Shown here in pieces: positions 1,231 to 45,607 of a stretch of 61,883 nucleotides of DNA. The stretch spans positions 1 through 61,883 of IMG/VR virus record IMGVR_UViG_3300044726_000045, one strand, 5' to 3'. Numbering within the stretch: the stretch's first letter is position 1; the number at the start of each line of letters is the position of its first letter. The notes under the pieces are model-generated. The model was not told the origin of the DNA. It did not search any database and saw only the letters and a program-made list of their open reading frames with translations. The DNA comes from a virus (taxonomy: Duplodnaviria > Caudoviricetes). Position numbers and translations under genes: made by a program.

Positions 1231-3021
1231 TCATGAGAGATACGCCTTGGCTTGCGCCATCATCGCCTCATCAGCGAGATCCAATGCCCATGTGCCCGAT
1301 GTTTCTCCCAAAATCCATTCTCCAATCGTCTTCCCCTCATAAACGAAGGGTAGCTCGACCAGTGCTGTCAACGCCGATGGTGACTTGTCCTGTAGTAACT
1401 GCCGAATCAGTAATTGGTCCGCAGGAGCCAGTGCCGCTACCGCCGCTTTCAACTCGCCTTCTTCAATCTCAGCCTGTGCGAACAGACGAATGGCATCCCA
1501 GTCAATTTCATCGGGTAGGAAACCTAGCTTAGCGAAGTAGGCCGCATTCCCTGCGACCCCTACGGCCAACTCGGTGGCTGACGACTTGACCCCGACGTTA
1601 ATCAGTTCCGTGAACAGATTCTTCAGGAACGCCAATTCCGCCTTGGGTGTCCCGGCTACTAACTCGGCTTGCGTTAGATAGAAGATACCCGTGAACGGAT
1701 CAAGGAGCGCACCCAGCTTGAACTCCACTCCTTTAGGATCTCCACCTCTCGCCTTCAGAGCAATGTTTCCATCCTCTTCAAACCGAATAGGATTCGCCCC
1801 GACACCCTGTCCCTTTGTCATCACCTCTTGCGGTGGCATACCTGTCAACTTCGCCAGCAACTCCGTGGGACTCATCCCGATGTGAGCATTCCACTGGGCC
1901 ACATTCTCTGGGGTGGCCTCGATACCCATCTCAGCCAAGTCAGCCGCTGTGACCGCTTGGAACACCTCAGCCTCGGCAGGCACGGTGGGTGTGACCTCGG
2001 TGGTCTTTCCCTTACTACTCTCGATAGATCGGCAGAGCGTGCGGCAGTGTGGATGGTACGGTGGGATGTGCAGCCCTCTGGCCACCAACTCCTCGTTACT
2101 CATCTCCATGAATCCCGCCATGGCTGCGTTCGTTTGCTTGGGCCACGGCTGCACCACACGAAGATCGTTCGGGTCTTGCACGTTCAGGGCTTCAATGACC
2201 TTCTCTCGTGCGTCAGTTACTTCGAACACCTTGCCACTGATGAAGCGGCAGAACCGGCTCGTGCGACCATCGAGCACCGCCGTCAAGCGATACCGGGCCA
2301 TGCCCACCACTTCGGCCTCTGCCGTGAATCCCCATGTCGCCAAGCGGCTGGAATTCAGGCTGGCAATCATCCGTAGCTGCTCATCCCCCTGCTTGTCGAA
2401 GGATACGAACGGTGTGACATACCGCCCCGACACAGGATCGGCTTTCCGCACTTGTTCGGTAGCGTCCCACTTGTTCGTTATACCGAATGGGATGGTTTCC
2501 TTCACGCCGGATGCGTGGCTGATCGTGATAGACGACACCGTAAAGATGCCACCCACGATCAGGTGGGCATACTTCTGTGCCGCCTCGGGTTTACAATACG
2601 CCAACGTACAGTGCGGCACGTAAACCGGGAAGTTCTTGTCCTTGAACGCCGCATAGTTCCCAATCTGCTGCTCGATGGTGTGGAAATGTGGACTGCCGAT
2701 ACGCGCCACCACCGGAACAGCACCACCGCTGTGCTCTGAGGCTGGAAACAACTGGACCTGTGTGACTTCGGCTTGGAAGGGGCGCTGAGACGCGATGAAC
2801 GCTCTCAGGCGGTCGTGCTCGTCATCCACCAGTCCATATCGCACCGTGACGTGGTTGGGGTCCACGTCCTTACCGGGGTCCATCAAGTCCTGCTCCTTGA
2901 TGGCGGCTCGGGCGATATTCAACTGGATCGACGCAGTACTGGTCGGATCAAGCTCGACCTGTGTACTGCCGTAGGAGTGTTCCTGCTTCTGAACCTCCTC
3001 TGCACTCAGTTGCACATGCAC
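1231..3021 (-). CDS. 2H phosphoesterase (Acb1/gp57B-like) fused to the MuF head-morphogenesis core and a possible C-terminal GNAT-like domain
   Basis: Two HxT motifs (HVTVRYG, HCTLAY); MuF motifs AVLDGRTSRFC and PPYHPHCR; AYFAKLGF near the C-terminus. Confidence 0.8.
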   Translation of the reverse strand: MHVQLSAEEVQKQEHSYGSTQVELDPTSTASIQLNIARAAIKEQDLMDPGKDVDPNHVTVRYGLVDDEHDRLRAFIASQRPFQAEVTQVQLFPASEHSGGAVPVVARIGSPHFHTIEQQIGNYAAFKDKNFPVYVPHCTLAYCKPEAAQKYAHLIVGGIFTVSSITISHASGVKETIPFGITNKWDATEQVRKADPVSGRYVTPFVSFDKQGDEQLRMIASLNSSRLATWGFTAEAEVVGMARYRLTAVLDGRTSRFCRFISGKVFEVTDAREKVIEALNVQDPNDLRVVQPWPKQTNAAMAGFMEMSNEELVARGLHIPPYHPHCRTLCRSIESSKGKTTEVTPTVPAEAEVFQAVTAADLAEMGIEATPENVAQWNAHIGMSPTELLAKLTGMPPQEVMTKGQGVGANPIRFEEDGNIALKARGGDPKGVEFKLGALLDPFTGIFYLTQAELVAGTPKAELAFLKNLFTELINVGVKSSATELAVGVAGNAAYFAKLGFLPDEIDWDAIRLFAQAEIEEGELKAAVAALAPADQLLIRQLLQDKSPSALTALVELPFVYEGKTIGEWILGETSGTWALDLADEAMMAQAKAYLS

Positions 3022-3313: not shown

Positions 3314-5023
3314 CTAGTATTTCATCAAATGCACTTTCTTCCACATGTCGTAGAGACCATCCGGGGTCTGAAGCGCCTCTCTGACTCGTTTCACTCGGTT
3401 CAAGAAACCTTGACGTTCCCCATCCGTCATGCTCGGGTGTCGGGCCACCAAGGCTGTCCAGTCGGCGGCATCAATGGACGCGGTAATCTCTTTTCTCAGG
3501 TTCTCCGGGGGCTTGGCATCACCTTCCATCCACTGTCCCACGGAGATCGACCGGAAGTAGAACGACCCCTCGTCATAGGCATCAGGCATGCTGTAGCCGT
3601 TATCGATGGCCACAGGATTACCCTTGTGCCCCATCACGTTGGCGTGATGACGATCCATCGATCCGATAGCGTAGTCCAGCACCGCCATTCTGGTGCCGCC
3701 GTCTTCCTCCATGTTCCCCATGTCTCCATCGGCATCGATCATCAATTGGAAGGAGCCGCCCTTCGGATTGGGTGCTTCAGAATTCTTCGGGCCACCGTCT
3801 CCACTACCTTCACTACGGTAGCCCTGACTCTTCCGCCACGCCGTGAACGACTGGATCTTGCTGTCATACATCCGGGCTTCGGTATCCGCATGACCTTCCA
3901 GCCACGAGTCATACTCATCATCCCGATACGAATCCTCGTCAAACGACCCCAACTCTTCCGCGCCTGCTTGGGCCTTCTTTTCGAGGATTTCTCGGATGCG
4001 ATCTTTCTCGCCGTCAGACAGCGGAGCCGACGTATCGACGTTGGCTTCCTTGAGCACTTCCGCCACATCAATTTCGTCAGGAATTTTGGGCCTGAATGAT
4101 GGCTTCGACCCCATGGGCAAGTTCGGGTATTCGCGGCCTGCCGCTGCGGCCCCTATGCTGGGATCTTCTTCCTTCATCTCATCCCAGACTTCCTGTACTT
4201 CCTCTGTCCGCTTCTCTACCTCTTTGACATGCTCACTCCAGAGGTTGCCCATCTCCTCGCCCACGGCATCCATGGCCTGTTCTTGGGCTTTTTCCTTGTA
4301 TTTGTCGTATTGTTCTCGGGCGTACTCCGAATCGTATCCACCCTCATCCCCTGAACTTTCTGGGATATCTACTTCGTCTGAGGCATCTTCCCGAAGGATC
4401 GTGACAGGGACTGGATTCTTCTCCGGACCAAACAGCAACTCACCAGCTTCATACGCAAAGACCTCACGCTCGGCCAGCGAGAAATTTCTGTTCGTCACAT
4501 AGTCGGTGATGCTATCGTTGGCGAAGCCACCTTCCCACGTCTCGTTGACTTCCGGCTTGAAAATCGCTTCGTCGCCGTTATCGAACCGCACGCGAAGAGA
4601 ACCGTTGACGCCTTCACCAAGAGGGTCAGACCCCGTGATACGTCCGGACTTCAACATGGACTCGACTTTGGCGTGCCCCGATACGGGTGGATTGAGTCGA
4701 GCCACGACCTCGGGATCACCGGTCAGTCGTGGGGCATTTCCAAACCCTGTGCCCGAAGGGGCATTCATGATATCGGCGTAGTCAGCAGACCCAAACCGCT
4801 CCCGCCGACGTTTCATCGGATCGGCGTCCCAACTCGCACCCCGTGACGCTTCTGGGGTACTGCCTAGTCCTGCACTGACACCCTTCACCCACTGCCCACC
4901 GGTTGGTGACCCTTTGGGACCACGGGGCTGATTGCGATTGAATTTCAGCACTTTTTCATACGACACGGGTGGTCGCAGTAGTGCCCGGATTCCTGCAATC
5001 AATTGCCGGGTGATGTGGGGCAT
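3314..5023 (-). CDS. PI3/4-kinase/HipA-like atypical kinase with N-terminal tag and acidic insertion
   Basis: GEGVNGS, AIFKP, EREVFAY, LDYAIGSMDRHHAN, IDNG motifs; tag KFNRNQPR. Confidence 0.75.
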   Translation of the reverse strand: MPHITRQLIAGIRALLRPPVSYEKVLKFNRNQPRGPKGSPTGGQWVKGVSAGLGSTPEASRGASWDADPMKRRRERFGSADYADIMNAPSGTGFGNAPRLTGDPEVVARLNPPVSGHAKVESMLKSGRITGSDPLGEGVNGSLRVRFDNGDEAIFKPEVNETWEGGFANDSITDYVTNRNFSLAEREVFAYEAGELLFGPEKNPVPVTILREDASDEVDIPESSGDEGGYDSEYAREQYDKYKEKAQEQAMDAVGEEMGNLWSEHVKEVEKRTEEVQEVWDEMKEEDPSIGAAAAGREYPNLPMGSKPSFRPKIPDEIDVAEVLKEANVDTSAPLSDGEKDRIREILEKKAQAGAEELGSFDEDSYRDDEYDSWLEGHADTEARMYDSKIQSFTAWRKSQGYRSEGSGDGGPKNSEAPNPKGGSFQLMIDADGDMGNMEEDGGTRMAVLDYAIGSMDRHHANVMGHKGNPVAIDNGYSMPDAYDEGSFYFRSISVGQWMEGDAKPPENLRKEITASIDAADWTALVARHPSMTDGERQGFLNRVKRVREALQTPDGLYDMWKKVHLMKY

Positions 5024-23931: not shown

Positions 23932-24633
23932 TTACCGCTTTTTGGCCTTCCACAAGCTCCGAGCCGAAGGCATCGGGCTGAACTGCTTGGTCTTCGCCGT
24001 CACCCCTTCGGGTGGAATCTGCTTCACCTTGGACTCAGGCAACTGCTGGTACTGAGTCGAGGACGATGCCGGTCCCAGTGAATGCCACTTGCCATTCCCA
24101 TTGCCGCCGCTCTTCGTCCCGGTCACCTCAGTCACGCCGTAGTGCTTCATCAAGAACTGCACTTGAGCCTTGGACTCCACCGCCTTCTTGCAGTAGTGCT
24201 TCCGGACCCACTGGATCGCGTCCTTCTTCCCCGTCAGTTCCGCCACGATGGCTGAGATCACGATCCCCGTGCGACCATGACCACCCACGCATCCGACATG
24301 CACCGTCTTGCCGTCCTGCAATTGAGTGCAGAGCCACGTCACCATCTTCTTGAACCGTGACGTGTTCACCGGGGCATTCATGTCCTGAATGCTGTAGTGG
24401 ATCTCCACCACCCCGTTCGGCTCCCATGGGTCCGACGACTTGCCGCTGGTGCTGCCGCTCTGCAATGACACATACACGTCGGCCTTCTTGATGGCTGGAT
24501 AGCTTGCACTCCCACCCACCAGCGTCCCCTTGCCCAGCTTCAGGGCTGGGTGCGACTCGTAGCACCGGATCGGCATCTCGGTGCCGCTGAAAGCGTCCTT
24601 GCTACTCTTACTGAACGTGTCCCACAGGGCCAT
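23932..24633 (-). CDS. Cys-dependent dual-specificity/tyrosine phosphatase
   Basis: IQDM acid loop, VHVGCVGGHGRTG (Cx5R), AVES..Q. Confidence 0.9.
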   Translation of the reverse strand: MALWDTFSKSSKDAFSGTEMPIRCYESHPALKLGKGTLVGGSASYPAIKKADVYVSLQSGSTSGKSSDPWEPNGVVEIHYSIQDMNAPVNTSRFKKMVTWLCTQLQDGKTVHVGCVGGHGRTGIVISAIVAELTGKKDAIQWVRKHYCKKAVESKAQVQFLMKHYGVTEVTGTKSGGNGNGKWHSLGPASSSTQYQQLPESKVKQIPPEGVTAKTKQFSPMPSARSLWKAKKR

Positions 24634-25761: not shown

Positions 25762-25790
25762 AGTCTGGCACAGGTCTAGACGTTTGTCAA
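25762..25790 (-). promoter_or_regulatory. Sigma70-type promoter
   Basis: TTGACA-17-CAGACT with TG extension. Confidence 0.65.
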
Positions 25791-26318
25791 ATGGGCCTGT
25801 TTGCCACCCACCCGCTCTTCAGGCTCCACTGGCAACCGGGTCAGGTTCGTCTTCCAGAACTTCAGCCACGCCCACCGCCTGACCAGCTTGATCTTCCGCC
25901 GCTGCCGGGGCGTCACCAGAAACCGCTTCACGAACTCGTACTGGTCCTTCGTCTCCACGGCATGGGCGTAATAGGTCGCCCGTACGAACTCCACCGGCTT
26001 GGCCACCCCGAACGCCTTCGCCAGTATGGCCAAGAACAGCCCCGTGCGCCCCTTGCCGCCCATGCAGCCCACGTAGATGGGTTCACCGGCCAGCATCAGG
26101 TCCAGCGCCTTATCCAGCCCCCTGTAGAGCGTCAGGCGGTCAGGCACGCTGAAGTCCTGCGTCGGGATATCGACGGCACACGCCTGCTTGATTTCCTTGG
26201 CCATCTTGACGCCCTTCATGGTCTCCGGGCAGTCCATGAACGGACCACCAGTCACCACGAAGAACTGCCGCTTCCACTTGCTACCGGGGTCTAACGGAAT
26301 TTGTAACTGGCCCAACAT
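25776..26318 (-). CDS. Cys-dependent dual-specificity/tyrosine phosphatase
   Basis: IPTQDFSVP, YVGCMGGKGRTG (Cx5R), AVET..Q. Confidence 0.9.
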   Translation of the reverse strand: MLGQLQIPLDPGSKWKRQFFVVTGGPFMDCPETMKGVKMAKEIKQACAVDIPTQDFSVPDRLTLYRGLDKALDLMLAGEPIYVGCMGGKGRTGLFLAILAKAFGVAKPVEFVRATYYAHAVETKDQYEFVKRFLVTPRQRRKIKLVRRWAWLKFWKTNLTRLPVEPEERVGGKQAHLTNV

Positions 26319-26701: not shown

Positions 26702-26964
26702 CGTCGCTCACCTTTCGTTGCCTCTTCCACACGAGAAATTCGAATCGACTTGTCCGCATGGAACGCCAACCGGTTGCCGCCAATTCCAGACTGCACACGG
26801 ACACCCGGCAGAATCTCCGTCGCCTGCCCTTCACTGATGACGATCTCATCTCCACGATCCACCGTCACCACCACGACGTTCGGGTAGACCAGTGCTTTCA
26901 CTTGCACCATGTGTCCACCCACCAGAATCTTGCTGCCGACACTCACGCCAATACTCAGGGCCAT
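26698..26964 (-). CDS. CsrA/RsmA-like RNA-binding protein with insertion
   Basis: N-terminal L.....GSKILVG and C-terminal RLAFHADKSIRISRVE resemble the two ends of CsrA. Confidence 0.55.
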   Translation of the reverse strand: MALSIGVSVGSKILVGGHMVQVKALVYPNVVVVTVDRGDEIVISEGQATEILPGVRVQSGIGGNRLAFHADKSIRISRVEEATKGERR

Positions 26965-28937
26965 TACTGCACCTCTCCGTTCCCGATTAGTTGCAGCGCC
27001 TGACTGACGCTGATGATCGACTTCGAACCCGCGAGATACTTACCGATGGACACCACCTTGATGGCACCCTCAGCCTGCTTCCACGCCAGCACCTTCTTGA
27101 TGGCCGGGTCGTTCACGTCAAGACCTTCCATCACAATCTCGTGGTCGCTCATGACGATGGACCGAAGGTCACTCCCCGCAGCCACCCGAGTAAACGATGA
27201 CGTGTGGTCGGCCTTGGCAATCAGCACCAGCCGCTTGGCAAGGTTCTCAGGAAGCGCAGAGGCCAGCCAATCCAACAACCTCTGTGCATGATTGTGCGCC
27301 GACAGGATGCTCAGATACCGTTCCTCTTCAGCAGACGGCACCAGATCCAGATAGAGCCGGTTCACGACCTTCAGCGTCTCCACAATCTTCACCGCTGACG
27401 CAGGCACGTTCAGCACCTGATCACCGAGATACAGCAGAGCTTCGTTCAGGGGCTTCTTCGGCGTATCGAAGATGACCGGGACGACGCCCAAGGTCTCATA
27501 GACCAGCGCGTTGAAATCCTGAACCAGTCCGTTAGCCGAGCCGCCGACAGTCGGTACCTTCTCGGTCCAGATCCGGCCCGTCGAACCGTCCATGCTCAGC
27601 ACTTCGATATCCTTGAACGACTCCACATCCTGTCCGACACCCACGATGCAGGCGCGGTCCATGCCACGCGCCACAACCGCCGCATGGCTCGTCAGACCAC
27701 CCACCATCGTGATGACTCCCCTCGCCGCATTCATGCCAGCGATATCATCGGGCTGCGTTTCCTTCGTCACAAGGATGCAAGGTTCCTTGCAACTGATTGC
27801 ATCCTGACGGGTGAACACCGGCTTGCCGCTCACGACACCCGAGCACGCCGGAATGCCTTGGAATGCCGCCTGCTTCGTCCACTTCGGGTCCAGCGTCACG
27901 GTCTGGGCCAAGTCAAACTGCTTGGCCGATACACGCTTCACCGCAACCTTCGGCTCAATCAGTCCCTGCTTGGCCATATCCACGGCAATCTTGATCGCTG
28001 CCATGGCTGACCGCTTGCCGGTCCTGACTTGCAGCAGGTACAGCTTGCCGTCCTGCACCGTGAATTCGATATCAAGCATCTCGCGCTTCAAGTTCTCCAG
28101 CTTGAGCACCTGACTCAGCAGTTCATCGTGAACCTGCGCGTTCCAGTCCTTCATCTGGTCCAGCGGCAGGGGCGTCCGGATGCCTGCCACGATATCTTCG
28201 CCTTGCGCGTTCGGCAGGAATTCGCCGGTCACTGCCATGCCGCCCGTGTCAGGGTTGCGCGTGAAGAGCACGCCCGTGCCAGACTGGTCATTCAGGTTCC
28301 CGAAGACCATGGCCTGCACCGTGACTGCCGTTCCCCACTCCCGGTCGTAGCCGTGCATCTTGCGGTATTCGTTCGCCCGATCATTATCCCACGACTTGAA
28401 GACCGCTTCGATGGACCCCAGTAGCTGCGCCTTCGCGTTCGGGAACTCTTCCCCGGCATGCGCCTGATAGCCGTCCAGCGCCAGTTTCAGGCCACCAGAC
28501 AACGACTCCTTGCGAATGCCCTTCACCACCGAGCCATACATCGACACCAGACGGTGGAACGAGTCTCCAAAGCACTTCGGCCCGAGACGTTCGATCCACT
28601 GCGGGATATTGCTGCTATCGAGACCGACGTTCAGGATCGTGTCCATCATGCCGGGGCACGAGACACGCGCACCAGAACGGACAGAGAGCAACGGCATGTA
28701 GCCGAAGTGCGCTTCCAGCTTCGCCAGATATTCCGGCAGAGCCTTGGCAATCTCCTTCATGGTGGTCTTGGGCTTCTTATCGTAATCCGCCCACACACTG
28801 GTCGGAATGACGAACCCCGGTGGCACCGGAACGCCCTCATTGGCCAACCATAGAAGTCCAACACCCTTGCCCCCGAGCAATTCGGTCGAACCCTTCGTCA
28901 GCGTGTCTTTGTCTAAGCCGAACGTGTAAAAGTCCAT
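26964..28937 (-). CDS. ppdK: PPDK-like dikinase: ATP-grasp and phospho-His swivel domains, canonical PEP/pyruvate barrel absent
   Basis: LLGGKG, VPPGF, LSVRSGA..S.PGMMDTILN, QAMVFGN, TRNP, NAQGED, DIEFT, LLQ.R, GGLTSHAAVVARG; only ~190 divergent aa follow. Confidence 0.9.
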   Translation of the reverse strand: MDFYTFGLDKDTLTKGSTELLGGKGVGLLWLANEGVPVPPGFVIPTSVWADYDKKPKTTMKEIAKALPEYLAKLEAHFGYMPLLSVRSGARVSCPGMMDTILNVGLDSSNIPQWIERLGPKCFGDSFHRLVSMYGSVVKGIRKESLSGGLKLALDGYQAHAGEEFPNAKAQLLGSIEAVFKSWDNDRANEYRKMHGYDREWGTAVTVQAMVFGNLNDQSGTGVLFTRNPDTGGMAVTGEFLPNAQGEDIVAGIRTPLPLDQMKDWNAQVHDELLSQVLKLENLKREMLDIEFTVQDGKLYLLQVRTGKRSAMAAIKIAVDMAKQGLIEPKVAVKRVSAKQFDLAQTVTLDPKWTKQAAFQGIPACSGVVSGKPVFTRQDAISCKEPCILVTKETQPDDIAGMNAARGVITMVGGLTSHAAVVARGMDRACIVGVGQDVESFKDIEVLSMDGSTGRIWTEKVPTVGGSANGLVQDFNALVYETLGVVPVIFDTPKKPLNEALLYLGDQVLNVPASAVKIVETLKVVNRLYLDLVPSAEEERYLSILSAHNHAQRLLDWLASALPENLAKRLVLIAKADHTSSFTRVAAGSDLRSIVMSDHEIVMEGLDVNDPAIKKVLAWKQAEGAIKVVSIGKYLAGSKSIISVSQALQLIGNGEVQ

Positions 28938-28975
28938 GTTTTCCACCACTCCATTGGTCACTTCGAACTGCATCT

Positions 28976-29004
28976 ATGGTAGCAATTGGCCCCATGTTTG
29001 TCAA
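28976..29004 (-). promoter_or_regulatory. Sigma70-type promoter for the PPDK-like gene
   Basis: TTGACA-17-TACCAT with TG extension. Confidence 0.7.
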
Positions 29005-29073
29005 GCGCCCACCGCTGGGGGTCGAACCCAGACTGTTCCGGGAAGGCTACAGTGCGCCGTCGTCGGTGAGCGC
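29005..29073 (-). ncRNA. tRNA-like small RNA
   Basis: 10-bp closing stem GCGCUCACCG/CGGUGGGCGC, T-arm CUGGG-UUCGACC-CCCAG, ACUGU/ACAGU stem; no D stem or encoded CCA. Confidence 0.7.
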
Positions 29074-29080
29074 AACAATC

Positions 29081-29109
29081 AAGGTAACACAGGTCAATTC
29101 GTTTGTCAA
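29081..29109 (-). promoter_or_regulatory. Sigma70-type promoter for the tRNA-like RNA
   Basis: TTGACA-17-TACCTT; -10 ends 7 nt before the RNA 5' stem. Confidence 0.7.
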
Positions 29110-29339
29110 TAGAGCTTGCCGGGTGGGTGGTGTTCATCGGATGACACCCATGTGCCGCCCCACGTCTCCAACACCCAGTACGCCTTCCGAGCATCATCAG
29201 TAGGCGCGTAATGACTGTCCGGTGGTGGCTGCATCTCGGGCGCGTTCAACACCCGCTCCAGTTCAGCATTGGCCTGCACCCGCCACACTCCATTGTTCAC
29301 CGTCGCCTCTTCTCCAGATGGCAACTTGATCTGTATCAT
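29106..29339 (-). CDS. Small hypothetical protein coupled to the zincin gene
   Basis: 77 aa, ATGA overlap. Confidence 0.7.
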   Translation of the reverse strand: MIQIKLPSGEEATVNNGVWRVQANAELERVLNAPEMQPPPDSHYAPTDDARKAYWVLETWGGTWVSSDEHHPPGKLY

Positions 29340-30451
29340 CGGTACTTCCCGTGCATGATATCAAAAATCAGGTTGAAATGTTCGGGTCGGTTTCTGGCAA
29401 AACTCACCGGGTCCATGATGTATGCCTCCACCCCGGTGGACACGATCTCCGTGGCAATGTCTTCCCTGTAAATCTTGCCCGTGTATGGATCGAGAAAATT
29501 CCCACGCACAGCAATCTCGTCATCCTCTAATCCCGGCTTGATGGTGTTCAGCTTGTATACCTCACGTGGGGTGTTCGCTTGGCGTTCTCTGAAATCAATT
29601 GCAGCTTTCAACACCTCTGACCGTCGCATCTCGATGTGGTGCGCCACCTCGTGGTAAACCTGCCGCTCCAACTCATTCCCACCCGCGATGTTGACCCCGG
29701 CGATGTCGGCATTGGCACGTCCAGACGTCGCCTTACTCAACTTCAACGACACCGGAATGGAATACGTGCCGTCTTCATTCTGCACAAAGGGATTCTCACC
29801 ACCAAAAATCTTGATGATTTCGTCCAACTTTTCAGCCGGGAACTTCACAGGCTCAAAGGCTCCTGACCCATCAAACGCCCGGAAGACTTGCAAAGCCATC
29901 TTCGTTCGTGCAGACACCCCCGGATGCAACGGATTCTGTGGATTGTCTGTGAACATCACCTTCGAACGCATCTCGGGCGGCACCTTCAGCATCTCATGAG
30001 CCTGCCCCAAAAATTTCCTTTGACGCTCCGAGACCTCATTGTATTTACGATGGAAATCGTCTTCCAGCGCCTTGGCTTCTTTGTAGGAGTCGAGCTTCTT
30101 CGCTGCCGCACCATCGGGCTTCAGCGGCTTCTTCCGGTTCTTGATCTCCTCCGACCACACGGTCCACTTCTTGAGCAAGTCCACGCGAAGATGGTTCAGG
30201 TGAACTTCTTCCCGCGCTTCACGCTTCAGCAACGCCTGAAAGTCTCGACGCTTCTGCTCCAACGGAGACCGCGAACCGCGTGCAAACTGTCCTCCAGTGG
30301 TGGTGCCTTTGGGATCGCGTGGCTGGCTGGGGTCAAACTTCAGGATACGGGCATACGGCTCAACCGGGACTCGGAACACCGGGAACTCATTCCACATGAA
30401 TCGGTCGGCCCCTTCCGGCAACCGCTTCATCTTGATCATTTTCAGGGCCAT
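29336..30451 (-). CDS. Tagged zincin-like metallopeptidase
   Basis: KFDPSQPRD tag; YHEVAHHIE; YTGKIY...TEIVS.GVE. Confidence 0.75.
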   Translation of the reverse strand: MALKMIKMKRLPEGADRFMWNEFPVFRVPVEPYARILKFDPSQPRDPKGTTTGGQFARGSRSPLEQKRRDFQALLKREAREEVHLNHLRVDLLKKWTVWSEEIKNRKKPLKPDGAAAKKLDSYKEAKALEDDFHRKYNEVSERQRKFLGQAHEMLKVPPEMRSKVMFTDNPQNPLHPGVSARTKMALQVFRAFDGSGAFEPVKFPAEKLDEIIKIFGGENPFVQNEDGTYSIPVSLKLSKATSGRANADIAGVNIAGGNELERQVYHEVAHHIEMRRSEVLKAAIDFRERQANTPREVYKLNTIKPGLEDDEIAVRGNFLDPYTGKIYREDIATEIVSTGVEAYIMDPVSFARNRPEHFNLIFDIMHGKYR

Positions 30452-32403
30452 TACCGTTTCCCCTCACTACTGCCGCCGCCGATGTATTCCAGATAAACCT
30501 GAGCCACTTGCACCGGCTTCAACGTGGGATCACCCGTCTGGTAGGTATACCCCGGATGCACCTTCGTCACACGAAATCGTGCGCCACTACCAAGGAGAAT
30601 TTCACTCTCAGTTCGCCTGTCCTTGTCATCCAGATCCTTGGCATTGATGGTCGGAGTCTGCGTATAATCTGGGATCGTAAAATCTTCAACCTTCAACTTT
30701 CCGTCTGCCGTCCACTCAGGATGTTCGAACACCGCAGGATCTTGAACACGAGGAAACTCATAGCGCATCCGTCGAGCCGCTTCCACCGCTGCCACCTTGG
30801 TTCCGGCAGGTAACGTGATGTGGAACTGCACTGCCGTGCCCACTTCATCTTGATGTTTCGCTATCATGCCGGGTTTACTGCCATAGCGTTGGTACAGACT
30901 CTCCCACTTACCCAGTGCCGGATAGCTCTTCGCTCGTCCCCCCGCTTCCCCCAGCATCGTGGACGTGAAACCTTTCTCTTCATACACGGATGGCGGTTCG
31001 CCGTTCGGTCCCTCGTACTGCATGGCCTGTAACGATTCAAACGTCACACCGGGCAGATAGGCTCCACGAATCACTTGCACCGGTTCGTCCAACACCAAAC
31101 CACGATTAGCAATCAGGTCATCGAGATGGTTGGCTTTGTCCGTAATTTCAGTGAGTCGTTCCTCATCGAGCACTGGACCCTTTACCGCCCAGTGTGCCGC
31201 CATGTATCCCGGTCCACCCGGCGTATCCTTCGGGATGTTGTCGTAGCTGTATGAATAACGGAACTCTGGACCTTCCGGTGGAATCATCCTCTGGACGGCT
31301 TCACCATCGTCAGCGTCCTTAATTCTCTGGTGCTCCTCTGGCGTCAACGCACGGATGCGTGCTTCCTTGGTAGGTGCTTTACCTCGACGTAGTTCGTTGA
31401 TCTGGCGATACGTGAATCCCGCATAGCTGTCCACCACGTCCGCGTCTTTGCTGGTCAGCTTGGTCTTCGCCCACTCGGCCCCCGGTCCCTTCTCGTGCCA
31501 CTGATAGCCCTCTTCACTGCTGAAGGAGCGTCCCGTGGTCTTCGTCCACTGGCCTTGGTCATCACGCGGCTGACTCGGGTCGAACTTCCGTGCCATCAAC
31601 TTCTCAATGGCGGTAATCTTTGGATTGCCCTTGAAGGTCCACTTGCCAGATGGCTCCTGCGTCATGAACGACGTGATGTAGGGATAGGCCGACGCATCGG
31701 CTTGATAGAACGCCATCTGCAACGTCGTAAAGTCAGCCACGTCCATACCGACTCGGGTGGCCTTCTCCTGTAACTTCTTAACCACGTCCGCTTCTAACGC
31801 ACTGAACCCTTCATACCCACGAAATAGCGGCCCAATCAGGTCATGGTTCAGTAGTTCCGTAGCCAACGTGATGTCCTTGTCACTGAAGCCTTCCTTCCGG
31901 AGCACGTCCTGCATGATGGGGACGGTGAACTGGTGTTGCGCTTCTTTTCCCGCTCCGGACTCGATAGCCTCGGCCTTCCCGATATCGTGCAACGGAATCG
32001 CCGTCTCCATCAGCTTTTCAACGTCACTCCCAAATCGTTCGGAGATACCTGCCATCTCCTCGTCGGTAAGTTGCTTTTCCCACTCGCGGCCCACGTCCTT
32101 AGTATGGGCCTCGATACTACCCATCTCGGTATGTGTACTGCGTGGATAGTTCTGGGCCACCGCTGGATACTTGATCTTGAGCGTGGCCATGCGGTGTTTG
32201 ATGTTGGTCCAGCGTCCCTTGTCATCGCGTGGCTGACTCGGATCGAATTTCAATGCGGAGACATAGTCCCGCTTCAGGACAAAGCGGTTCTCATATTCCG
32301 TTAGCAGTTGGTCCCGCAGCACAACTACTCTCCGGTGATACGTGTTCGTGCCGCTTCCAACGCCGACGTAATCTTGTCCATGTCCATGACAACTTCCTGC
32401 CAC
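30451..32403 (-). CDS. Tagged HD-domain + VIP2-like ADP-ribosyltransferase
   Basis: Two KFDPSQPRD tags; LHDIGK..H..NHD..AD; Y....YRQIN..RRG, VIRG, EKGFTST, ESEILL..GARFRV. Confidence 0.85.
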   Translation of the reverse strand: MAGSCHGHGQDYVGVGSGTNTYHRRVVVLRDQLLTEYENRFVLKRDYVSALKFDPSQPRDDKGRWTNIKHRMATLKIKYPAVAQNYPRSTHTEMGSIEAHTKDVGREWEKQLTDEEMAGISERFGSDVEKLMETAIPLHDIGKAEAIESGAGKEAQHQFTVPIMQDVLRKEGFSDKDITLATELLNHDLIGPLFRGYEGFSALEADVVKKLQEKATRVGMDVADFTTLQMAFYQADASAYPYITSFMTQEPSGKWTFKGNPKITAIEKLMARKFDPSQPRDDQGQWTKTTGRSFSSEEGYQWHEKGPGAEWAKTKLTSKDADVVDSYAGFTYRQINELRRGKAPTKEARIRALTPEEHQRIKDADDGEAVQRMIPPEGPEFRYSYSYDNIPKDTPGGPGYMAAHWAVKGPVLDEERLTEITDKANHLDDLIANRGLVLDEPVQVIRGAYLPGVTFESLQAMQYEGPNGEPPSVYEEKGFTSTMLGEAGGRAKSYPALGKWESLYQRYGSKPGMIAKHQDEVGTAVQFHITLPAGTKVAAVEAARRMRYEFPRVQDPAVFEHPEWTADGKLKVEDFTIPDYTQTPTINAKDLDDKDRRTESEILLGSGARFRVTKVHPGYTYQTGDPTLKPVQVAQVYLEYIGGGSSEGKR

Positions 32404-35265: not shown

Positions 35266-36306
35266 TCATGCGATTTCAAACTGGCCCCACATATTGAGTT
35301 CGTCGGTGTTTGCCATCGCGTAGGGGGTGGTGCCGCTCCAGAGGCCCAGCTTTGCGACCGTGGCCTGATGGTAGAACACCGTGAACCTGTTGGCGTTGTC
35401 GATGCGGCCCATGCCGCGATAGGCCGCTGCGCCATCGCTTGCGTCGGAACCATGCGCGTCGATCATCGTGCCACCAGCTTGATTCATTGTGAGCGGGAGC
35501 GAGAACTGGAAGGCTCCGGTGCCGAAGGTGGTGGTTGACCCGCAATACAACCGGACGCGAACGAGGCAGAAGGGGCCAATCGGCAGGTAGCGCCCGATAA
35601 GCGCTCCGTTCCCAATGACCGGCTGCGTGCCGGTCGTGGTCCAGACCGGGGTGTAGCTGAGCCACGGCATCCCGTAGACATAGCCAGTGAGGTAAATGCC
35701 GGTGTTGCTCCAAAGGCCGTAGCTTGGGTGTGAGCCGAGATACCACGTCCCTTGAGCGACCCCCGGCGTATCGGCGCGACCGGGGTAGACAAAGCCATTC
35801 GGCTGGACGATCCCGGTGTTGAGCAGGTCTTTACAGCGAAAATTTGCATATAGCGTCTGATCCGCAAGAACGGATTCAAGTAAGGCTCCATTTGGCCGTA
35901 GCCCCGGTGACGCAGCGGTCTTGCCGCCAAATTGCAACACCTTCGCAGCTTCCCAATACGAGAGCGTCGAATTCCTGATCAGCTTGCCGGTCGTGCTGTT
36001 GAAGGTCGGGATCGCTTCATCGACAGCACCCGCAGGGCCAACCACATCGCCGCCACTACTCGTGCCCGGTATACCTTGCGGACCCTGAATACCTTGAATA
36101 CCTTGCGGACCCTGCGGACCTTCGGGGCCAATCGGACCTTCCGGACCTGTCTCACCCTGAATACCCTGAATTCCCTGCGGCCCAATCGGACCTTCGGGGC
36201 CTGCGGGACCAACTGGACCTTCAGGCCCCTGTGGACCGACTGGACCTTCGGTCTTCACATTCCAAATCGGCACCCATTCAGTTGTTGCGGGATCGGGACT
36301 CGCCAT
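35266..36306 (-). CDS. Collagen-repeat fibre protein
   Basis: About 20 GXY triplets; C-terminal W.SYTP.W...GNG...GRY...GSTT..G.G...FSLP domain. Confidence 0.8.
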   Translation of the reverse strand: MASPDPATTEWVPIWNVKTEGPVGPQGPEGPVGPAGPEGPIGPQGIQGIQGETGPEGPIGPEGPQGPQGIQGIQGPQGIPGTSSGGDVVGPAGAVDEAIPTFNSTTGKLIRNSTLSYWEAAKVLQFGGKTAASPGLRPNGALLESVLADQTLYANFRCKDLLNTGIVQPNGFVYPGRADTPGVAQGTWYLGSHPSYGLWSNTGIYLTGYVYGMPWLSYTPVWTTTGTQPVIGNGALIGRYLPIGPFCLVRVRLYCGSTTTFGTGAFQFSLPLTMNQAGGTMIDAHGSDASDGAAAYRGMGRIDNANRFTVFYHQATVAKLGLWSGTTPYAMANTDELNMWGQFEIA

Positions 36307-36308
36307 CT

Positions 36309-39089
36309 CTAGGTCGCCTTAATGATGAACTGCACCGTGCAATACGCCGGGGTGGCTCCATCCGTCGCCGTAATCGGTGCTGTTGCGGTCGCACCTGAAA
36401 TCGCCGGGGCTGTAGCTGCCGTCGCACCACTCATCGCGGACTGTGCAGCAGCAGTTGTCCCGGTCAATCCCGGTGCTGCGGCTCCTGTGTTACCGCTTAC
36501 TCCCGGTGCTGCGGCTCCGCTGCTTCCCGTCACATCAGGAGCCACAGCGGCGGTCGCTCCAGTCAGTGTATGACTATGAGCACCATTCGTATCGGTCTTA
36601 ATCGAACCAGAACTATTCGCTGACGTACCAGTCACGCCGCCACTTCCACTGAACGAGTGGACGTGTGCAGGCGCAGAATAGTAAATCGTCATCGGGTTCT
36701 GGCCGACAATCGGGAACGTAGCATCCTCCGAATAACTACCGGAATGTGCGCCTGTATTCCCACTGATGCTGGCGGAAAACGACCCCGGACCATGCGAGTG
36801 GGCAGGCATGTAATGTTCATGATTGCCCGTCGAGTTCGTCGCAAACGTCCCGGCTCCGTGTGTATGCGAAGCCGCAGAGTACGAACCGGAGTCATGCGTG
36901 TGACTCGCTACGGCCAAGCCGCTTCCATCGTGCGTGTGACTCGCTACTGCCAGCGTGCCGACACCATGCGTATGGCTGGCGGCGGCAATGGTGCCGACAT
37001 CATGACTGTGGCTGGCAACAGCTAAGGTACCGACGCCATGACTGTGCGCCGGAACATTGTGCGTGTGACTGATCGCTCCACCCGTCTCACCGAGCACCGA
37101 CCCGACACCTGATACCGCTTTACCGAGTGGGAATCTCTGTTGCAAGTTCGGGACGTTGAACGTGGTCGAACCATCGCCTGCACCGTAGTTCGTCCCGATC
37201 ACCGCGAACAATGCGGCGAAAGCCACACGATCCAATGGCTGACCCTGACACAACTCCCATCCACCCGGAGCCACATCTGCCGCCCACATGACCAACGCGC
37301 CGATAGGCACCGCGCCTGTCGGACCTACTGGACCCGGTATACCTTGTGGCCCTGTGTCACCTTGCGGACCCTCTGGACCTTCAGGCCCCGGATCACCTTG
37401 CGGTCCCGGTGGCCCCGGTGGTCCTGTTACACTAACGATGCCAGTTCCCGGCCATGGTTCCGGTGGCTCATTCGTCTCACGCACACAGACATACGCCACA
37501 CCATCGGTACCGACGACAATATCGCCGTCTTTGTATGTGCCGGGGACGTAATCTCCAAGGTATTCAAGATCAGTCGAGCCACCTCCAGCACCACCCGCTG
37601 AATTCAAAACCTTATCAACCAGCGTCAAGCCAGTGCCCAACGTAATTTCTTCTGCAACTCCGAATCCGCTGTTCGAACCTCTGCCAAGCAACTTGTTAGC
37701 GGCAATTGATGGCATCGTGCCCGTGGCACCCGTTGGGCCTTGCACACCTTGCACACCCTGTGGACCCTGCGTGCCCGTGTCACCCTTGATACCCTGAGCA
37801 CCGGCTGGACCTGATGGCCCTTGTGGTCCGAGTGGCCCTTGTGGGCCTTGTGGCCCTTCTGGGCCTGTTGGACCCGTAGACCCGGCTGGACCGGTCGCTC
37901 CGGTGTCTCCGGTCGGTCCTGTGTCTCCCTGCGGCCCTTGTGGGCCTGCCGGTCCCTGAGCACCCGTCACACCGACTGGACCTTCGACACCCTGCGGTCC
38001 CTGATCACCCTGCGGACCCATCGGCCCTTCCGGACCATCGGCACCCACTGGACCGGGTGGACCGACTAGCCCTTCTGGGCCTTCCGGACCTATCGGACCC
38101 GGATCACCCTGTGGACCCACTGGACCTGTGGCTCCTGTCGGTCCTGCGGGACCGGGGGCACCCTGAATCTTGCCTGCATCAATCCACGTCTGCGTGTCTT
38201 CATCCCAGACCCACAGATGCCCGGTATCAGCGGCTATCCATCCATCCCCAGCTTCTCCAACCGGTGGCAATTGTTCTGACGACGGCACACTACCTTTGAT
38301 AGCGATGCCAGTGCCGGGATCACCCTTCGGACCTTCCGGCCCTTCTGGTCCTATCGGCCCCTCTGGACCCGCTACGCCCTGCACACCTTGCGGACCCTCT
38401 GGACCTGTCGGGCCTGCGACTCCAATCTCTCCTGCGGCCCCCTGAACGCCCTGCGGTCCCTGTGGGCCTGCCGGTCCCGTGGCACCGGGTATCCCCTGTA
38501 CGCCCTGTGGTCCTTCTGAACCCGGCACCCCCTGAATACCCTGTTCACCCTGTGGTCCTGCTGGACCAATCGGTCCCTCGATACCTTGGATGCCCTGTGG
38601 ACCCTCTGGACCGACATCTCCAGTCGGTCCTTCAGGCCCCACTGGGCCAACTTCACCTTGTTCACCTTGTGGTCCCGGTGGGCCTTCGGCACCTCCAGTG
38701 GGTACCTGTGCCCACTCCTTCAAACCATTCAGGTATTCATCAGGATTCCCAGACGGTGCAATCCACAAATCGTGTATCGTCTTCTCGGTAATTGTGGCGG
38801 CAATCAGGAAGCCTGCCGTGATGGCAACAGGCCCTGTGCCTTCTTGACGGCGAAGCACCGTCAGCACATCACCCACGATGGTGACGACTCTAACGACTTC
38901 CGCATTGGTCGGATCAGGTAGGACGTTCTTCGGGTAGGCCGACGCCATGAACGGCGGCTCTGGTAGCCGAACGCCATGGCCCGGTGGCACCGCCAGTGTA
39001 TCCCCAGATTCTGGGGGAACTGGAGCTACGGCAACCGTCGTTACGGCAAAATTCTTGAACTTGTCCAGCAGAACTGCCACGACGGGCAC
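36309..39089 (-). CDS. Collagen-like tail fibre with tail-collar domain and HxH repeat needle
   Basis: Long GXY tracts; [31 protein letters not shown]; 12-aa SHTH repeats; FIIK C-terminus. Confidence 0.9.
37715..38693 (-). repeat. Collagen Gly-X-Y repeat tract, interrupted once
   Basis: GP.GP. triplets in the translation; 9-nt periodicity in the DNA; boundaries approximate. Confidence 0.85.
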
Positions 39090-42680: not shown

Positions 42681-42919
42681 TGTCCACTCTCCTTTTGAAA
42701 TACGTCGATATGCACCAACGAAATATCCCGCACCACCAACTCTTTATGCACCGCTGTGCCACGCAACTCGTTCCTCATGACATCGGCCATCTTATACGCT
42801 TCGTGAAAACTACTCGCCACCAGCAACTGCTCCTCGCAGGGATCAGTCTCGACCTTAATGACGCCGTTCACTACCAGATCGAACGTGGCCATGTAGACCT
42901 GCACTCGATTGAACTTCAT
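42677..42919 (-). CDS. Hypothetical protein
   Basis: Coupled 80-aa ORF. Confidence 0.6.
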   Translation of the reverse strand: MKFNRVQVYMATFDLVVNGVIKVETDPCEEQLLVASSFHEAYKMADVMRNELRGTAVHKELVVRDISLVHIDVFQKESGQ

Positions 42920-43815
42920 CGCGCACCATCCATGTCGGCGGCATCCCTGAACCCGACGAACTGTGGGAAGCGCGGTTTGTCCTTGCCACCACTAGCAAAG
43001 AACTTGAACTTGACGATCTTGCCGATGTAGTTCCCGCCGTCATTCCAGATGGCCTGCCGCTCCACCAGCGTGCCGGTCGGACTCACCTTGTGGACGATGC
43101 CCGTCTCCAGATTCTTGACGAGGTAGGCCCCGAGCGTGCCCTTGGCGACCTTACCATCCTTGTGGCTACTCCGTGCCGTGTGGCCAAGCTCGTTCACGAA
43201 CGCAGTGTTCTGATTCGACTCCTGCTCGATCAGGTCGAGCACTTCGCCTTCACCATCGGTGAACCGCTTCATCTTGAGCAAGAAACCTTCGTTGCTCGTG
43301 GACCGGCCCTGCTTGTACGGACCCTTGGGACTCCGGATCATCAGACCCTCATATCCCAGTTCCACCGCCACCGCTTCCAGACTCTGGAGCACGTCCTGCG
43401 ACTCCACGAGATTGTGAGGAACCATCTGCACATACGGCAGACTGAGACCATCCACAACCTGTGAAGCCTCTGCCAGACGACTGGCAAACGGGCCTACCAT
43501 GAACTTGTCGAACACATGGAACACAAAATTTGGCTTGCCGTCCTGCGACATGACCGCACTCGACGTGACCCGGAACGCATCAGCCGCTGCCGGGTTGCCG
43601 ACGATCAACTCCCCGTCCAGCCCTTCCAGTTCCGGGCGGCTCAACAGGGCCTGCACATGCAGGTTGGCGATGGGTTTGAGACTGCGGCTCATGACCACGC
43701 CGCCTTGGATGGTGGCACGGATACCGTCGAGCTTCGGACTGGCAAGCACCGGGAACCGACCACTCGCCAACACGAACGGAGCCTCCAACTTGCCTGCCAA
43801 CATCGCTTTGAACAT
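42916..43815 (-). CDS. lig: ATP-dependent DNA ligase
   Basis: SPKLDGIR, LDGEL, FHVFD, YEGLMIR, LLKMK, PRFP.F; start moved to MFKAMLA with AAGGGAG RBS. Confidence 0.93.
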   Translation of the reverse strand: MFKAMLAGKLEAPFVLASGRFPVLASPKLDGIRATIQGGVVMSRSLKPIANLHVQALLSRPELEGLDGELIVGNPAAADAFRVTSSAVMSQDGKPNFVFHVFDKFMVGPFASRLAEASQVVDGLSLPYVQMVPHNLVESQDVLQSLEAVAVELGYEGLMIRSPKGPYKQGRSTSNEGFLLKMKRFTDGEGEVLDLIEQESNQNTAFVNELGHTARSSHKDGKVAKGTLGAYLVKNLETGIVHKVSPTGTLVERQAIWNDGGNYIGKIVKFKFFASGGKDKPRFPQFVGFRDAADMDGAR

Positions 43816-43930
43816 CAGACCCACTCCCTTGGGAAATATGAGAGGGGATATCAAGCTGCCCCTCATCAGCCGTCGCTCTCCTAATCTGCCCCGCGCATTG
43901 GCGACCGTCACGCGATGCCTCAACAGAACC

Positions 43931-43959
43931 AGTCTACCACCAGTCCTGCCATTTGTCAA
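43931..43959 (-). promoter_or_regulatory. Sigma70-type promoter
   Basis: TTGACA-17-TAGACT. Confidence 0.75.
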
Positions 43960-44917: not shown

Positions 44918-44936
44918 CCACTCAGGCGTTTGTCAA
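44908..44936 (-). promoter_or_regulatory. Sigma70-type promoter
   Basis: TTGACA-17-TAGACT. Confidence 0.75.
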
Positions 44937-45425
44937 CTGTGCAACCGATTGCACAGAATACAACGGCCCGGTCGTCAGCAACTTACTCGCCGCCGCAATG
45001 TTCTCCTCGGACACCCCCTTCTCGGGCGTCGTCTTCACGAACCACTCACGAACCCCGTCCATGCTGAACCGACCCTCATGGTTGTCGTCCAGAATCGCCA
45101 GATGCACCGGTTCCCCCATGCCCTTGAGCCAGTTCTGAATCTCCTCACCACGGACCCAGCCGTTCTCGGTGACCCCGAGCACACGACGGGTGGGAATGCC
45201 CCCATACACCTGTAGGAACCGCCGTAGCTCCCCCAGCGTGTAATTGTGCCGCCAGTCTGAACTCACGACCACCGAAGCGTTCAGACGCTCCACCATGCCA
45301 CCCACGCGCAGGGCCAACCGCCGCTCGATCTGTGGCTCAACGGGTGAACTGAGGTAATACCCCTGCTTGCTCACCCGATTGATCACCCCGTCGAAATCCA
45401 AAAACACTATCCGTCTCGCGCTCAT
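44922..45425 (-). CDS. HAD-superfamily phosphatase (Swiss-army-knife RNA-repair-like)
   Basis: FLDFDGVIN, VVSSDWR, RGEEI..WL, ILDD. Confidence 0.85.
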   Translation of the reverse strand: MSARRIVFLDFDGVINRVSKQGYYLSSPVEPQIERRLALRVGGMVERLNASVVVSSDWRHNYTLGELRRFLQVYGGIPTRRVLGVTENGWVRGEEIQNWLKGMGEPVHLAILDDNHEGRFSMDGVREWFVKTTPEKGVSEENIAAASKLLTTGPLYSVQSVAQLTNA

Positions 45426-45607
45426 CTCGCTCCCTTCACCACCCGGTGGCACCGCACACAATACAATCGGTTCACGTCTGGGACCACTCGGTGCCCTGCA
45501 ACCATGCAGAGCACCTTGCGGCCTATCTCCTGCTTCCTGATGACCCACCACTTCAGCCGCCACCGCCACAGCGGCACTCGACCGTGGATCGTGTTCACAT
45601 ACTTCAT
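45422..45607 (-). CDS. Small hypothetical protein
   Basis: C...GH.......CVRC; ATGA-coupled at both ends. Confidence 0.55.
   Translation of the reverse strand: MKYVNTIHGRVPLWRWRLKWWVIRKQEIGRKVLCMVAGHRVVPDVNRLYCVRCHRVVKGAR

Follow-up and report, generated by a model that had tools for sequence, protein, structure and literature searches.

A 69-nucleotide (nt) element shaped like the top half of a tRNA lies between two tandem promoters, here called P1 and P2, upstream of a PPDK-like kinase gene in an uncultured soil phage of about 115 kb whose clade comes from soil and sediment. The DNA analyzed, referred to here as the window, is an IMG/VR virus record of 61,883 nt with an estimated completeness of 54%, a G+C content of approximately 56%, and all confident genes on the minus strand. 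The tRNA-top-half fold is real and statistically unusual. The reading that we prefer, tentatively and with a probability of about 0.45, is that the element may be a lineage-specific, strongly folded 5' leader module of the P1 transcript, with a paired 5' end that would protect this transcript; with the same reserve, under this reading, the element would not be a free-standing RNA gene. The features on which the argument turns are as follows.

29005..29073, minus strand: tRNA-top-half-like element, 69 nt, filling the entire spacer from the predicted P1 start to the P2 −35
29064..29073, minus strand: 5' strand of the terminal (acceptor-like) 10-bp stem, pair probabilities of 0.95 to 1.0
29032..29063, minus strand: 32-nt body, consisting of a D-like loop and a proposed 5-bp arm with a 12-nt loop; the fold is ambiguous, and a single-nucleotide polymorphism (29041) lies inside
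29015..29031, minus strand: T-arm CUGGG / UUCGACC / CCCAG, the sole strict T-arm-like hairpin of the window
29005..29014, minus strand: 3' strand of the terminal stem, abutting the T-stem directly, with the P2 −35 next
29081..29109, minus strand: P1, the upstream promoter, with TTGACA at 29109-29104, a 17-nt spacer, and TGn-TACCTT at 29086-29081
28976..29004, minus strand: P2, the downstream promoter, TTGACA-17-TACCAT, 10/12 matches, with TG before the −10
26964..28973, minus strand: PPDK-like kinase gene, with PPDK_N and PEP-utilizers mobile domains; PHROG 18609, "kinase"

Read 5' to 3', the element is GCGCUCACCG / ACGACGGCGC / ACUGU / AGCCUUCCCGGA / ACAGU / CUGGG / UUCGACC / CCCAG / CGGUGGGCGC, and the minus strand from 29073 to 29005 agrees exactly with the element as written in an earlier, sequence-only reading of this DNA. 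That reading had described a 10-bp acceptor-like stem and a canonical T-arm; the stem was confirmed by its pair probabilities (0.95 to 1.0), and the T-arm was confirmed by a loop that matches UUCRANY and is closed by a G-C pair. It was also correct in stating that a 7-nt anticodon loop and a CCA are absent (the proposed loop has 12 nt). The stems are perfect, with 15/15 pairs. In the tRNA register, positions 29070 to 29064 form the 7-bp acceptor strand, and positions 29073 to 29071 form a 3-nt paired leader; the 7-bp register is that of the alignment to mascRNA (see below). The D-like region is a 10-nt purine-rich stretch with no stem, and 0 to 1 nt separates the proposed third arm from the T-stem. 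This third arm, a 5-bp stem with a 12-nt loop, did not hold up, as it is thermodynamically disfavored and its pair probability is at most 0.1 in both alleles at position 29041. The terminal stem is followed by UUGACAAAC, which lacks a U-tract, and neither the sequence nor a terminator scan revealed an intrinsic terminator.

Variation at position 29041 was assessed in contigs of four DNA runs (X11, X13, X16, and X20) over positions 28700 to 29400. Contigs of X11, X13, and X16 showed one difference within the element, at 29041 (RNA position 33), and X16 had, in addition, a contig of the L016 type (the sister lineage described below); X20 had no coverage of the element. A search of sequencing runs traced this phage to roughly 17 studies and listed no RNA run with it. 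The window carries the minority allele, with C at RNA position 33, and the commoner A is present in contigs of three of the four runs and in L006, a contig nearly identical to the window. In the window allele, the T-arm competes with a CCCGGA/UCUGGG pairing and has a probability of 0.16.

Chance expectation was estimated by scanning for a 5-bp stem (G-U allowed) around TTCRANY, with 200 dinucleotide shuffles of the window as the control. A single T-arm-like hairpin was observed in the window, compared with 0.985 expected. When a stem adjoining the T-arm was also required, 9.5% of the shuffles had one of at least 7 bp and none (0/200) had one of at least 10 bp. The overall minimum free energy z-score of the element is only −1.44. 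Applied to 210 loci (1.73 Mb), the same scan acted as a tRNA detector, with nearly all of its 169 matches being tRNAs; the distance from acceptor to T-arm was 36 to 59 nt in nearly all of the tRNAs caught, compared with 32 nt in the element (35 nt in the 7-bp register). The scan also returned a 12-bp stem abutting a T-arm with 26 nt between, identical in two loci (L103, minus strand, offset 743; L124, plus strand, position ~9917), which lies inside tRNA arrays of other phages and leaves no room for a tRNA body.

P1 and P2, which bound the element, both represent the phage promoter TTGACAAAC. The promoter family has the form TTGACAAAY-N14/15-TGnTAnnnT, usually with an extended −10, and precedes most early or middle genes. 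The window holds 18 TTGACAAAY promoter sites (19154 to 51561), 18/18 of which are on the minus (coding) strand, and no TTGACAAA site occurs on the plus strand of the window. P1 was not listed in the consensus promoter scan because its −10 matches at only 3/6 positions. The P1 −10 is 7 nt from the first stem base (G at 29073), so that, as previously proposed from the same spacing, the predicted start falls on the first base of the stem; likewise, the P2 TTGACA begins at 29004, the base immediately after the element, where the sequence-only reading had placed the next −35. The stop codon (TGA, 29108-29106) of an upstream 77-amino-acid (aa) open reading frame (ORF) falls within the P1 −35. The element is the sole long structured leader among the 18 promoters of the window; the leaders of the remaining 16 are short and unstructured and lead into a ribosome-binding site. 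Inverted repeats flank several of the 18 promoters (for example, CTGCCACTA...TAGTGGCAG at site 51561). A second tandem pair, 63 nt apart on the minus strand (48254 and 48191), has a small hairpin, GUUCA-GUUUG-UGAAC, in its spacer.

To place P1 and P2 among relatives, the best 80 of 203 IMG/VR loci with a relative of the PPDK-like gene were considered, of which 13 (65 to 100% PPDK protein identity, 10 distinct sequences) include the upstream DNA; L014 does not include it. A tandem P1-P2 pair of the TTGACAAA type precedes the PPDK-like gene in 13/13 of these loci (10 distinct sequences), and the P1 equivalent has an extended −10 in every one of them. Thus, the element cannot be credited with a dedicated promoter, as had been claimed, since P1 is the upstream member of a tandem pair in all 13 loci. 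The distance from −35 to −35 is 65 to 77 nt in the relatives versus 105 nt in the window. In the complete relatives G001 to G003, the only same-strand tandem pairs less than 130 nt apart are the PPDK pair and a pair around a real tRNA. At the same position, a terminator hairpin and only one promoter occur in distant cultured relatives (44 to 47% identity; Stenotrophomonas DLP3, Rhizobium RHph_TM16, and Rhodobacter RcZahn).

At 28973, the first base of the longest kinase ORF lies upstream of where P2 transcription is predicted to begin (~28968). The true start is likely the in-frame ATG at 28937, which is behind GGAGTGG and downstream of the predicted P2 start, and this position agrees with the gene starts in relatives. 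A 79-aa ORF through the element (28958-29197, minus strand) was considered as a coding sequence and rejected, because the 31-nt indel between the window and L016 is not a multiple of 3 and the sequences upstream of P1 are unrelated. Because no terminator follows the stem, P1 transcripts should continue into the kinase gene. From the promoter spacing, P1 transcripts would start at the first base of the 10-bp stem and would read through P2 into the kinase gene with a leader of ~136 nt. In bacteria, 5'-end-dependent decay proceeds through the RppH/RNase E pathway, and stable 5'-terminal stem-loops on bacterial and phage mRNAs, such as that of the ompA 5' untranslated region, act as stabilizers. 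A fully paired 5' end would similarly shield the P1 transcript from decay by RppH/RNase E. Like the ompA-type stabilizers, the element is predicted to form a stable stem from the first transcribed base of an mRNA leader; known 5' stabilizers are, however, simple hairpins with no T-arm. The tRNA likeness is possibly an accidental, secondary property of a young accessory structure. Since a stem stacked on a canonical T-arm (7 plus 5 bp, with 3 extra pairs) is a minimal shape for RNase P and T-loop enzymes, nicking is possible, and an RNase P nick could fall 3 nt from the 5' end of the element.

The distribution of the element is narrow. Pattern scans of IMG/VR and of metagenome contigs found it in the window, in the near-identical 11-kb contig (L006/L089), and in two contigs of a sister lineage (L007 and L016). 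A pattern of T-arm plus P2 matched only 3 contigs in IMG/VR; the leader pattern matched 4 contigs in IMG/VR and 1 (the L016 contig) among metagenome contigs; and a looser pattern, GGTTCRA-N5-35-TTGACAAAC, matched more than 117 stretches, mostly unrelated. Searches of 50,697 phage records by megablast and blastn gave no match to the element, and no further copies are present in the window or in three complete relatives. In 8/10 distinct types, the spacer between P1 and P2 is unrelated to the element (29 to 41 nt, versus 69 nt in the window), and no alignment columns are shared among the spacers outside the promoters. A hairpin conserved across all spacers was also considered and rejected, as z-scores ranged from −4.7 (L012, a long hairpin) to +2.3 and most spacers are unstructured. 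Its absence from close relatives suggests a young accessory leader structure rather than a conserved RNA gene.

The sister lineage shows how the element differs from its closest counterpart. The form in L007 and L016 is 38 nt, corresponding to the first 8 and last 30 positions of the element without the 31-nt middle, and its fold begins with 7 bp, followed by a 2x2 internal loop, 2 more bp, a bulge, and finally a T-stem of 4 bp with the loop UUCAACU, so that the T-arm is kept with one mismatch. In both lineages, the structure covers the spacer from its first base to its last. Over the shared 38 nt, the window and L016 differ at 7 positions, all of them transitions (7/7). The covariation that the sequence-only reading had proposed as a check was not found: two of the 7 differences are G-U changes that keep the pair, two give C.A mismatches, and none is compensatory, in a comparison of two lineages that has low power. 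As a conserved structured RNA family, the element therefore fails, with two lineages only and no compensatory changes. A PPDK tree groups the window with L007/L016 (99/98 support) and places the other types outside. Outgroup spacers are 37 to 41 nt (29 nt in L026); the 38-nt form matches these outgroup lengths and thus represents the ancestral length, so that an insertion is the simplest account of the extra 31 nt of the window. Short-word blastn against the window and the collected loci yielded only chance matches of 10 to 14 nt to this extra 31 to 32 nt and hence no donor.

Comparison of the flanks placed the element at a boundary. Upstream of P1, the window and L016 share 19 to 28 of 60 positions and have no homology, with unrelated genes, whereas from the T-arm into the kinase gene they share 48 to 56 of 60 positions (80 to 93%). 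The shared 3' part of the element (24/30 identical) is no better conserved than the flank. This identity profile indicates that the element sits at a mosaic junction, with the boundary at ~29110. The upstream 77-aa gene of the window is shared with L026 and not with L016.

Next, the element was compared with tRNAs and other RNA families. ARAGORN found 0 tRNA or transfer-messenger RNA (tmRNA) genes in the window, and Rfam at gathering thresholds found 0 matches. The tRNA model RF00005, positive in 14/14 control genomes, gave no match up to an E value of 10 over the whole record. What the element shares with tRNA is a 7-bp acceptor stem stacked directly on a 5-bp T-stem with a UUCRANY loop; a detectable score, a 7-nt anticodon loop, a D-arm, and a variable region of the minimum 3 to 4 nt are all missing. 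With E values up to 10 allowed over positions 28700 to 29400, the sole Rfam match was to mascRNA-menRNA (RF01684; 25.7 bits, E = 0.0072), and this match fails membership, as the gathering score is 42.5. mascRNA and menRNA are tRNA-like modules cut from the vertebrate MALAT1 and MEN-beta transcripts by RNase P and RNase Z. Like mascRNA, the element has about 60 nt, a 7-bp acceptor stem, and a canonical T-arm, its D and anticodon arms are reduced, it has no role in decoding, and it would be embedded within a longer transcript and not be a terminated gene. In contrast, mascRNA is vertebrate and nuclear and comes from the 3' end of a long noncoding RNA, and the element is predicted to be the 5' end of a phage mRNA.

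Other known RNAs with a tRNA-like part are more distant. No tRNA-like domain of tmRNA was recognized by ARAGORN or by the Rfam tmRNA models. The YrlA RNAs of bacteria and phages carry a tRNA-like T-arm/acceptor module, and the YrlA of M. smegmatis is cut by RNase P and gains CCA (PMC4201824); YrlA is identified by an RF02553 match and a Ro60 (TROVE) gene within ~4 kb on the same strand (PMC4201824). The element resembles YrlA in its T-arm plus acceptor module but lacks the Ro-binding stem, has no RF02553 match, and has no TROVE domain in any of the eight neighboring proteins scanned (0/8). Acceptor-T-arm minihelices are also similar, since the 38-nt form in L007/L016 amounts in essence to a hairpin made of a stem and a T-loop, to which the window adds a 32-nt body at the junction; minihelices are, however, laboratory constructs, and the natural sister form is imperfect (internal loop, bulge, and mismatch). 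In shape, the closest counterparts are mascRNA and these minihelices; in genomic format, the closest are promoter-tRNA-promoter cassettes of phages. No account of a tRNA-like element ahead of PPDK-like genes in phages turned up in a full-text literature search (main texts only).

Such cassettes occur within the clade. Among four complete relatives, one genome (G003) has a tRNA, a single tRNA-Cys(GCA) (L086:1501-1574; 57.7 bits), which lies between two TTGACAAAC promoters that are nearly identical, including their spacers. It begins 5 nt after the predicted start, and the next −35 is 10 nt past its end. The cassette spans L086:1461-1600 (G003:C1:77162-77300), and the gene downstream of the tRNA has no match in the window, G001, G002, or G004. 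This arrangement suggests an insertion with promoter duplication or promoter-mediated cassette shuffling. A scan of IMG/VR for promoter-N55-85-GGTTCRA-N15-40-promoter found 37 stretches; because a T-loop was required, the scan is biased towards tRNAs. ARAGORN tRNAs are present in 11/37 stretches, and 10 of these 11 begin 36 to 43 nt after the start of the −35. The tRNA-Lys genes in L243 and L251 have no encoded CCA, and their next −35 is two nt after the acceptor end. Like the TTGACAAA promoter-tRNA-promoter cassettes, the element has an acceptor stem a few nt after the −10, a next −35 close behind its 3' end (within 2 to 30 nt in the cassettes), and no terminator; in contrast to it, the tRNAs of the cassettes are bona fide and ARAGORN positive, and the element is missed by both detectors and lacks an anticodon loop. 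Two unrelated IMG/VR phages have a promoter-flanked T-arm and closing stem (L232:3382-3505, minus strand; L261:3070-3210, plus strand) that is recognized by neither ARAGORN nor Rfam (E up to 0.01); the stretch in L261 has CCACCA at its end. These may be further promoter-driven tRNA-like RNAs, and their loci have no match to window proteins.

Several observations weigh against a 5' leader module that serves mainly to protect the P1 transcript. A 5'-terminal hairpin is present in only 3/10 spacer types (window, L016, and L012), so stabilization is not a conserved need. The element begins at position 37 after the start of the −35, in the format of real phage tRNA genes, and a stabilizing hairpin would not need to resemble a tRNA as closely as this T-arm on a 10-bp stem does. 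Moreover, the commoner allele, A at RNA position 33 (window 29041), raises the probability of the T-arm to 0.88. A rival explanation, which we regard as doubtful, is that the element is a discrete tRNA-top-half mimic acting in trans. RNase P would cut 3 nt into the stem, and a cut after the discriminator by a 3' tRNA-processing activity would release a stable RNA of ~64 nt, with the P1 transcript or upstream read-through as the precursor. The product may serve as a decoy or sponge and bind a host factor specific for the tRNA elbow or acceptor; alternatively, it may be a substrate of the phage's own RNA-end enzymes, and the operon would be punctuated by these cuts and not by a terminator. This explanation draws on the canonical T-arm stacked on the 7-bp register, which is the shape recognized by RNase P, on mascRNA as the best Rfam likeness (E = 0.0072), on the absence of the arrangement from 200 shuffles, on the commoner allele, which favors the T-arm, and on a geometry like that of real cassettes, some of which lack CCA and have the next −35 2 to 3 nt past the acceptor (L243 and L251). 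The phage also has Pfam domains named for RNA repair (two DSP-PTPases, HAD_SAK_2, 2H phosphoesterase, and ligase). Against it, the element is absent in 8/10 spacer types of relatives that have the same neighboring enzymes, and the internal loop, bulge, and C.A mismatch of the sister form spoil the 7-plus-5 geometry. Compensatory changes are lacking, with conservation equal to that of the flank; the mascRNA score is far under the gathering score, and the tRNA model is negative up to an E value of 10; and the element lacks a 3' RCCA and an anticodon loop and has no other copy in the window or in three complete relatives. Of the tRNA-elbow mimic put forward in the sequence-only reading, the top-half shape, the missing anticodon loop and CCA, and the likeness to mascRNA stand; the dedicated promoter does not, and its check by covariation gave no support. 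Its suggested use as a decoy for anticodon nucleases fell away, as a molecule with no anticodon loop offers these enzymes no target. A more specific version, to which we give rather little credence, is that a mascRNA-like mimic evolved recently from an ordinary inter-promoter spacer, in what would be the de novo birth of a tRNA-like RNA, is excised from the 5' end of an early operon by host RNase P and 3' tRNA-processing enzymes, and titrates or feeds a factor that reads the elbow or the acceptor; this factor could be a host tRNA-directed defense or the kinase, phosphatase, or ADP-ribosyltransferase-like enzymes of the phage.

The position of the element exactly where homology between the window and the sister lineage begins would also be expected of a neutral scar of illegitimate or promoter-mediated recombination at a module junction, the T-arm likeness being a coincidence in an unconstrained spacer. 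The sequence of the spacer at this site is free to change, as is its length to some extent; chance alone would yield about one T-arm-like hairpin in the window (0.985); and, as all 7 differences from L016 are transitions, the purine and pyrimidine classes of the T-loop are kept automatically. Rare coincidences will also turn up when many windows are screened. A scar is nonetheless unlikely in our view, given that a 10-bp stem abutting a T-arm was found in 0/200 shuffles, that the stems are perfect and the structure fills the spacer end to end in both lineages, and that the extra 31 to 32 nt has no donor. Descent from an ordinary tRNA gene, by deletion of the D and anticodon arms from a cassette to leave 69 nt in the window and 38 nt in L007/L016, is improbable. 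The existence of promoter-tRNA-promoter cassettes in the clade (the G003 tRNA-Cys) and in other phages speaks for it, as does the acceptor core CACCG/CGGUG that the element has in common with the G003 tRNA-Cys. However, RF00005 (E up to 10) and ARAGORN were both negative in the window, and the best score against 293 distinct phage tRNAs (53.5) was reached by 1% of whole-sequence shuffles and by 73% of body-only shuffles, so it is the acceptor and T-arm that account for all of the tRNA likeness; the G003 tRNA-Cys came no higher than 6th of 185. No tRNA precedes the kinase gene in the 78 of 80 related loci that were scanned (L009 and L014 lay outside the scan), and the only tRNAs among these 78 loci, in L019, are 4 kb downstream. 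The 38-nt length of the sister form, typical of outgroups, favors one insertion over two independent deletions, and the T-arm plus acceptor strand pattern is absent from bacterial tRNAs in 185,579 species genomes (GTDB species set). An origin from a host tRNA or attP was tried with the same pattern and rejected, as its only 2 matches were both chance matches to coding DNA within non-tRNA sequence. A decayed ordinary tRNA, named in the sequence-only reading as the outcome that would count against its proposal, thus found no support and is weakly refuted.

Beyond the promoter region, the window has an unusual concentration of domains with phosphotransfer and RNA-repair names in the PPDK-like kinase and six further minus-strand ORFs (23932-24633, 25776-26318, 44922-45569, 30451-32403, 42916-43959, and 3314-5023). 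The six encode two DSP-PTPase domains (Pfam PTP-SAK / Tc-R-P), HAD_SAK_2, a C-terminal ADP-ribosyltransferase-like domain whose match is weak (E = 1.8e-4, under the cutoff), an ATP-dependent ligase, and a PI3/PI4-kinase-like domain. The "RNA repair" label comes from Pfam descriptions, and the "Swiss Army Knife" domain names reportedly originate in an RNA-repair paper by Burroughs and Aravind. The PHROGs label "thymidylate synthase" on both phosphatases looks like a mislabel. Because relatives with the same kinase-phosphatase module lack the element, a functional link between the element and these enzymes, such as the enzyme substrate suggested in the sequence-only reading, is conjectural. Elsewhere on the minus strand, a 596-aa protein (1231-3021) has a 2H phosphoesterase domain (2'-5' RNA ligase superfamily, E = 3.7e-9) and also a weak match to Mu-F-like head morphogenesis; judged by these domains, it may be a virion-associated RNA-end enzyme. 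Two collagen-repeat proteins are encoded at 35266-36306 and 36309-39089 (minus strand), of which the larger has a phage tail collar domain and is likely a tail fiber.

The more solid by-product of this analysis is a tandem promoter pair that is conserved before the PPDK-like kinase operon in a clade of ~115-kb phages, and another is the promoter-tRNA-promoter arrangement of cassettes in phages with the same type of promoter. Should the element undergo tRNA-like processing, it would represent a counterpart of mascRNA in a bacterial virus and would offer a rare view of the birth of a tRNA-shaped RNA, as the sister lineage has only a hairpin and the outgroups have plain spacers. We consider it more likely that it is only a structured leader at a recombination junction, in which case it would be a cautionary example of how a tRNA-like top half can arise in an unconstrained spacer without an RNA gene.

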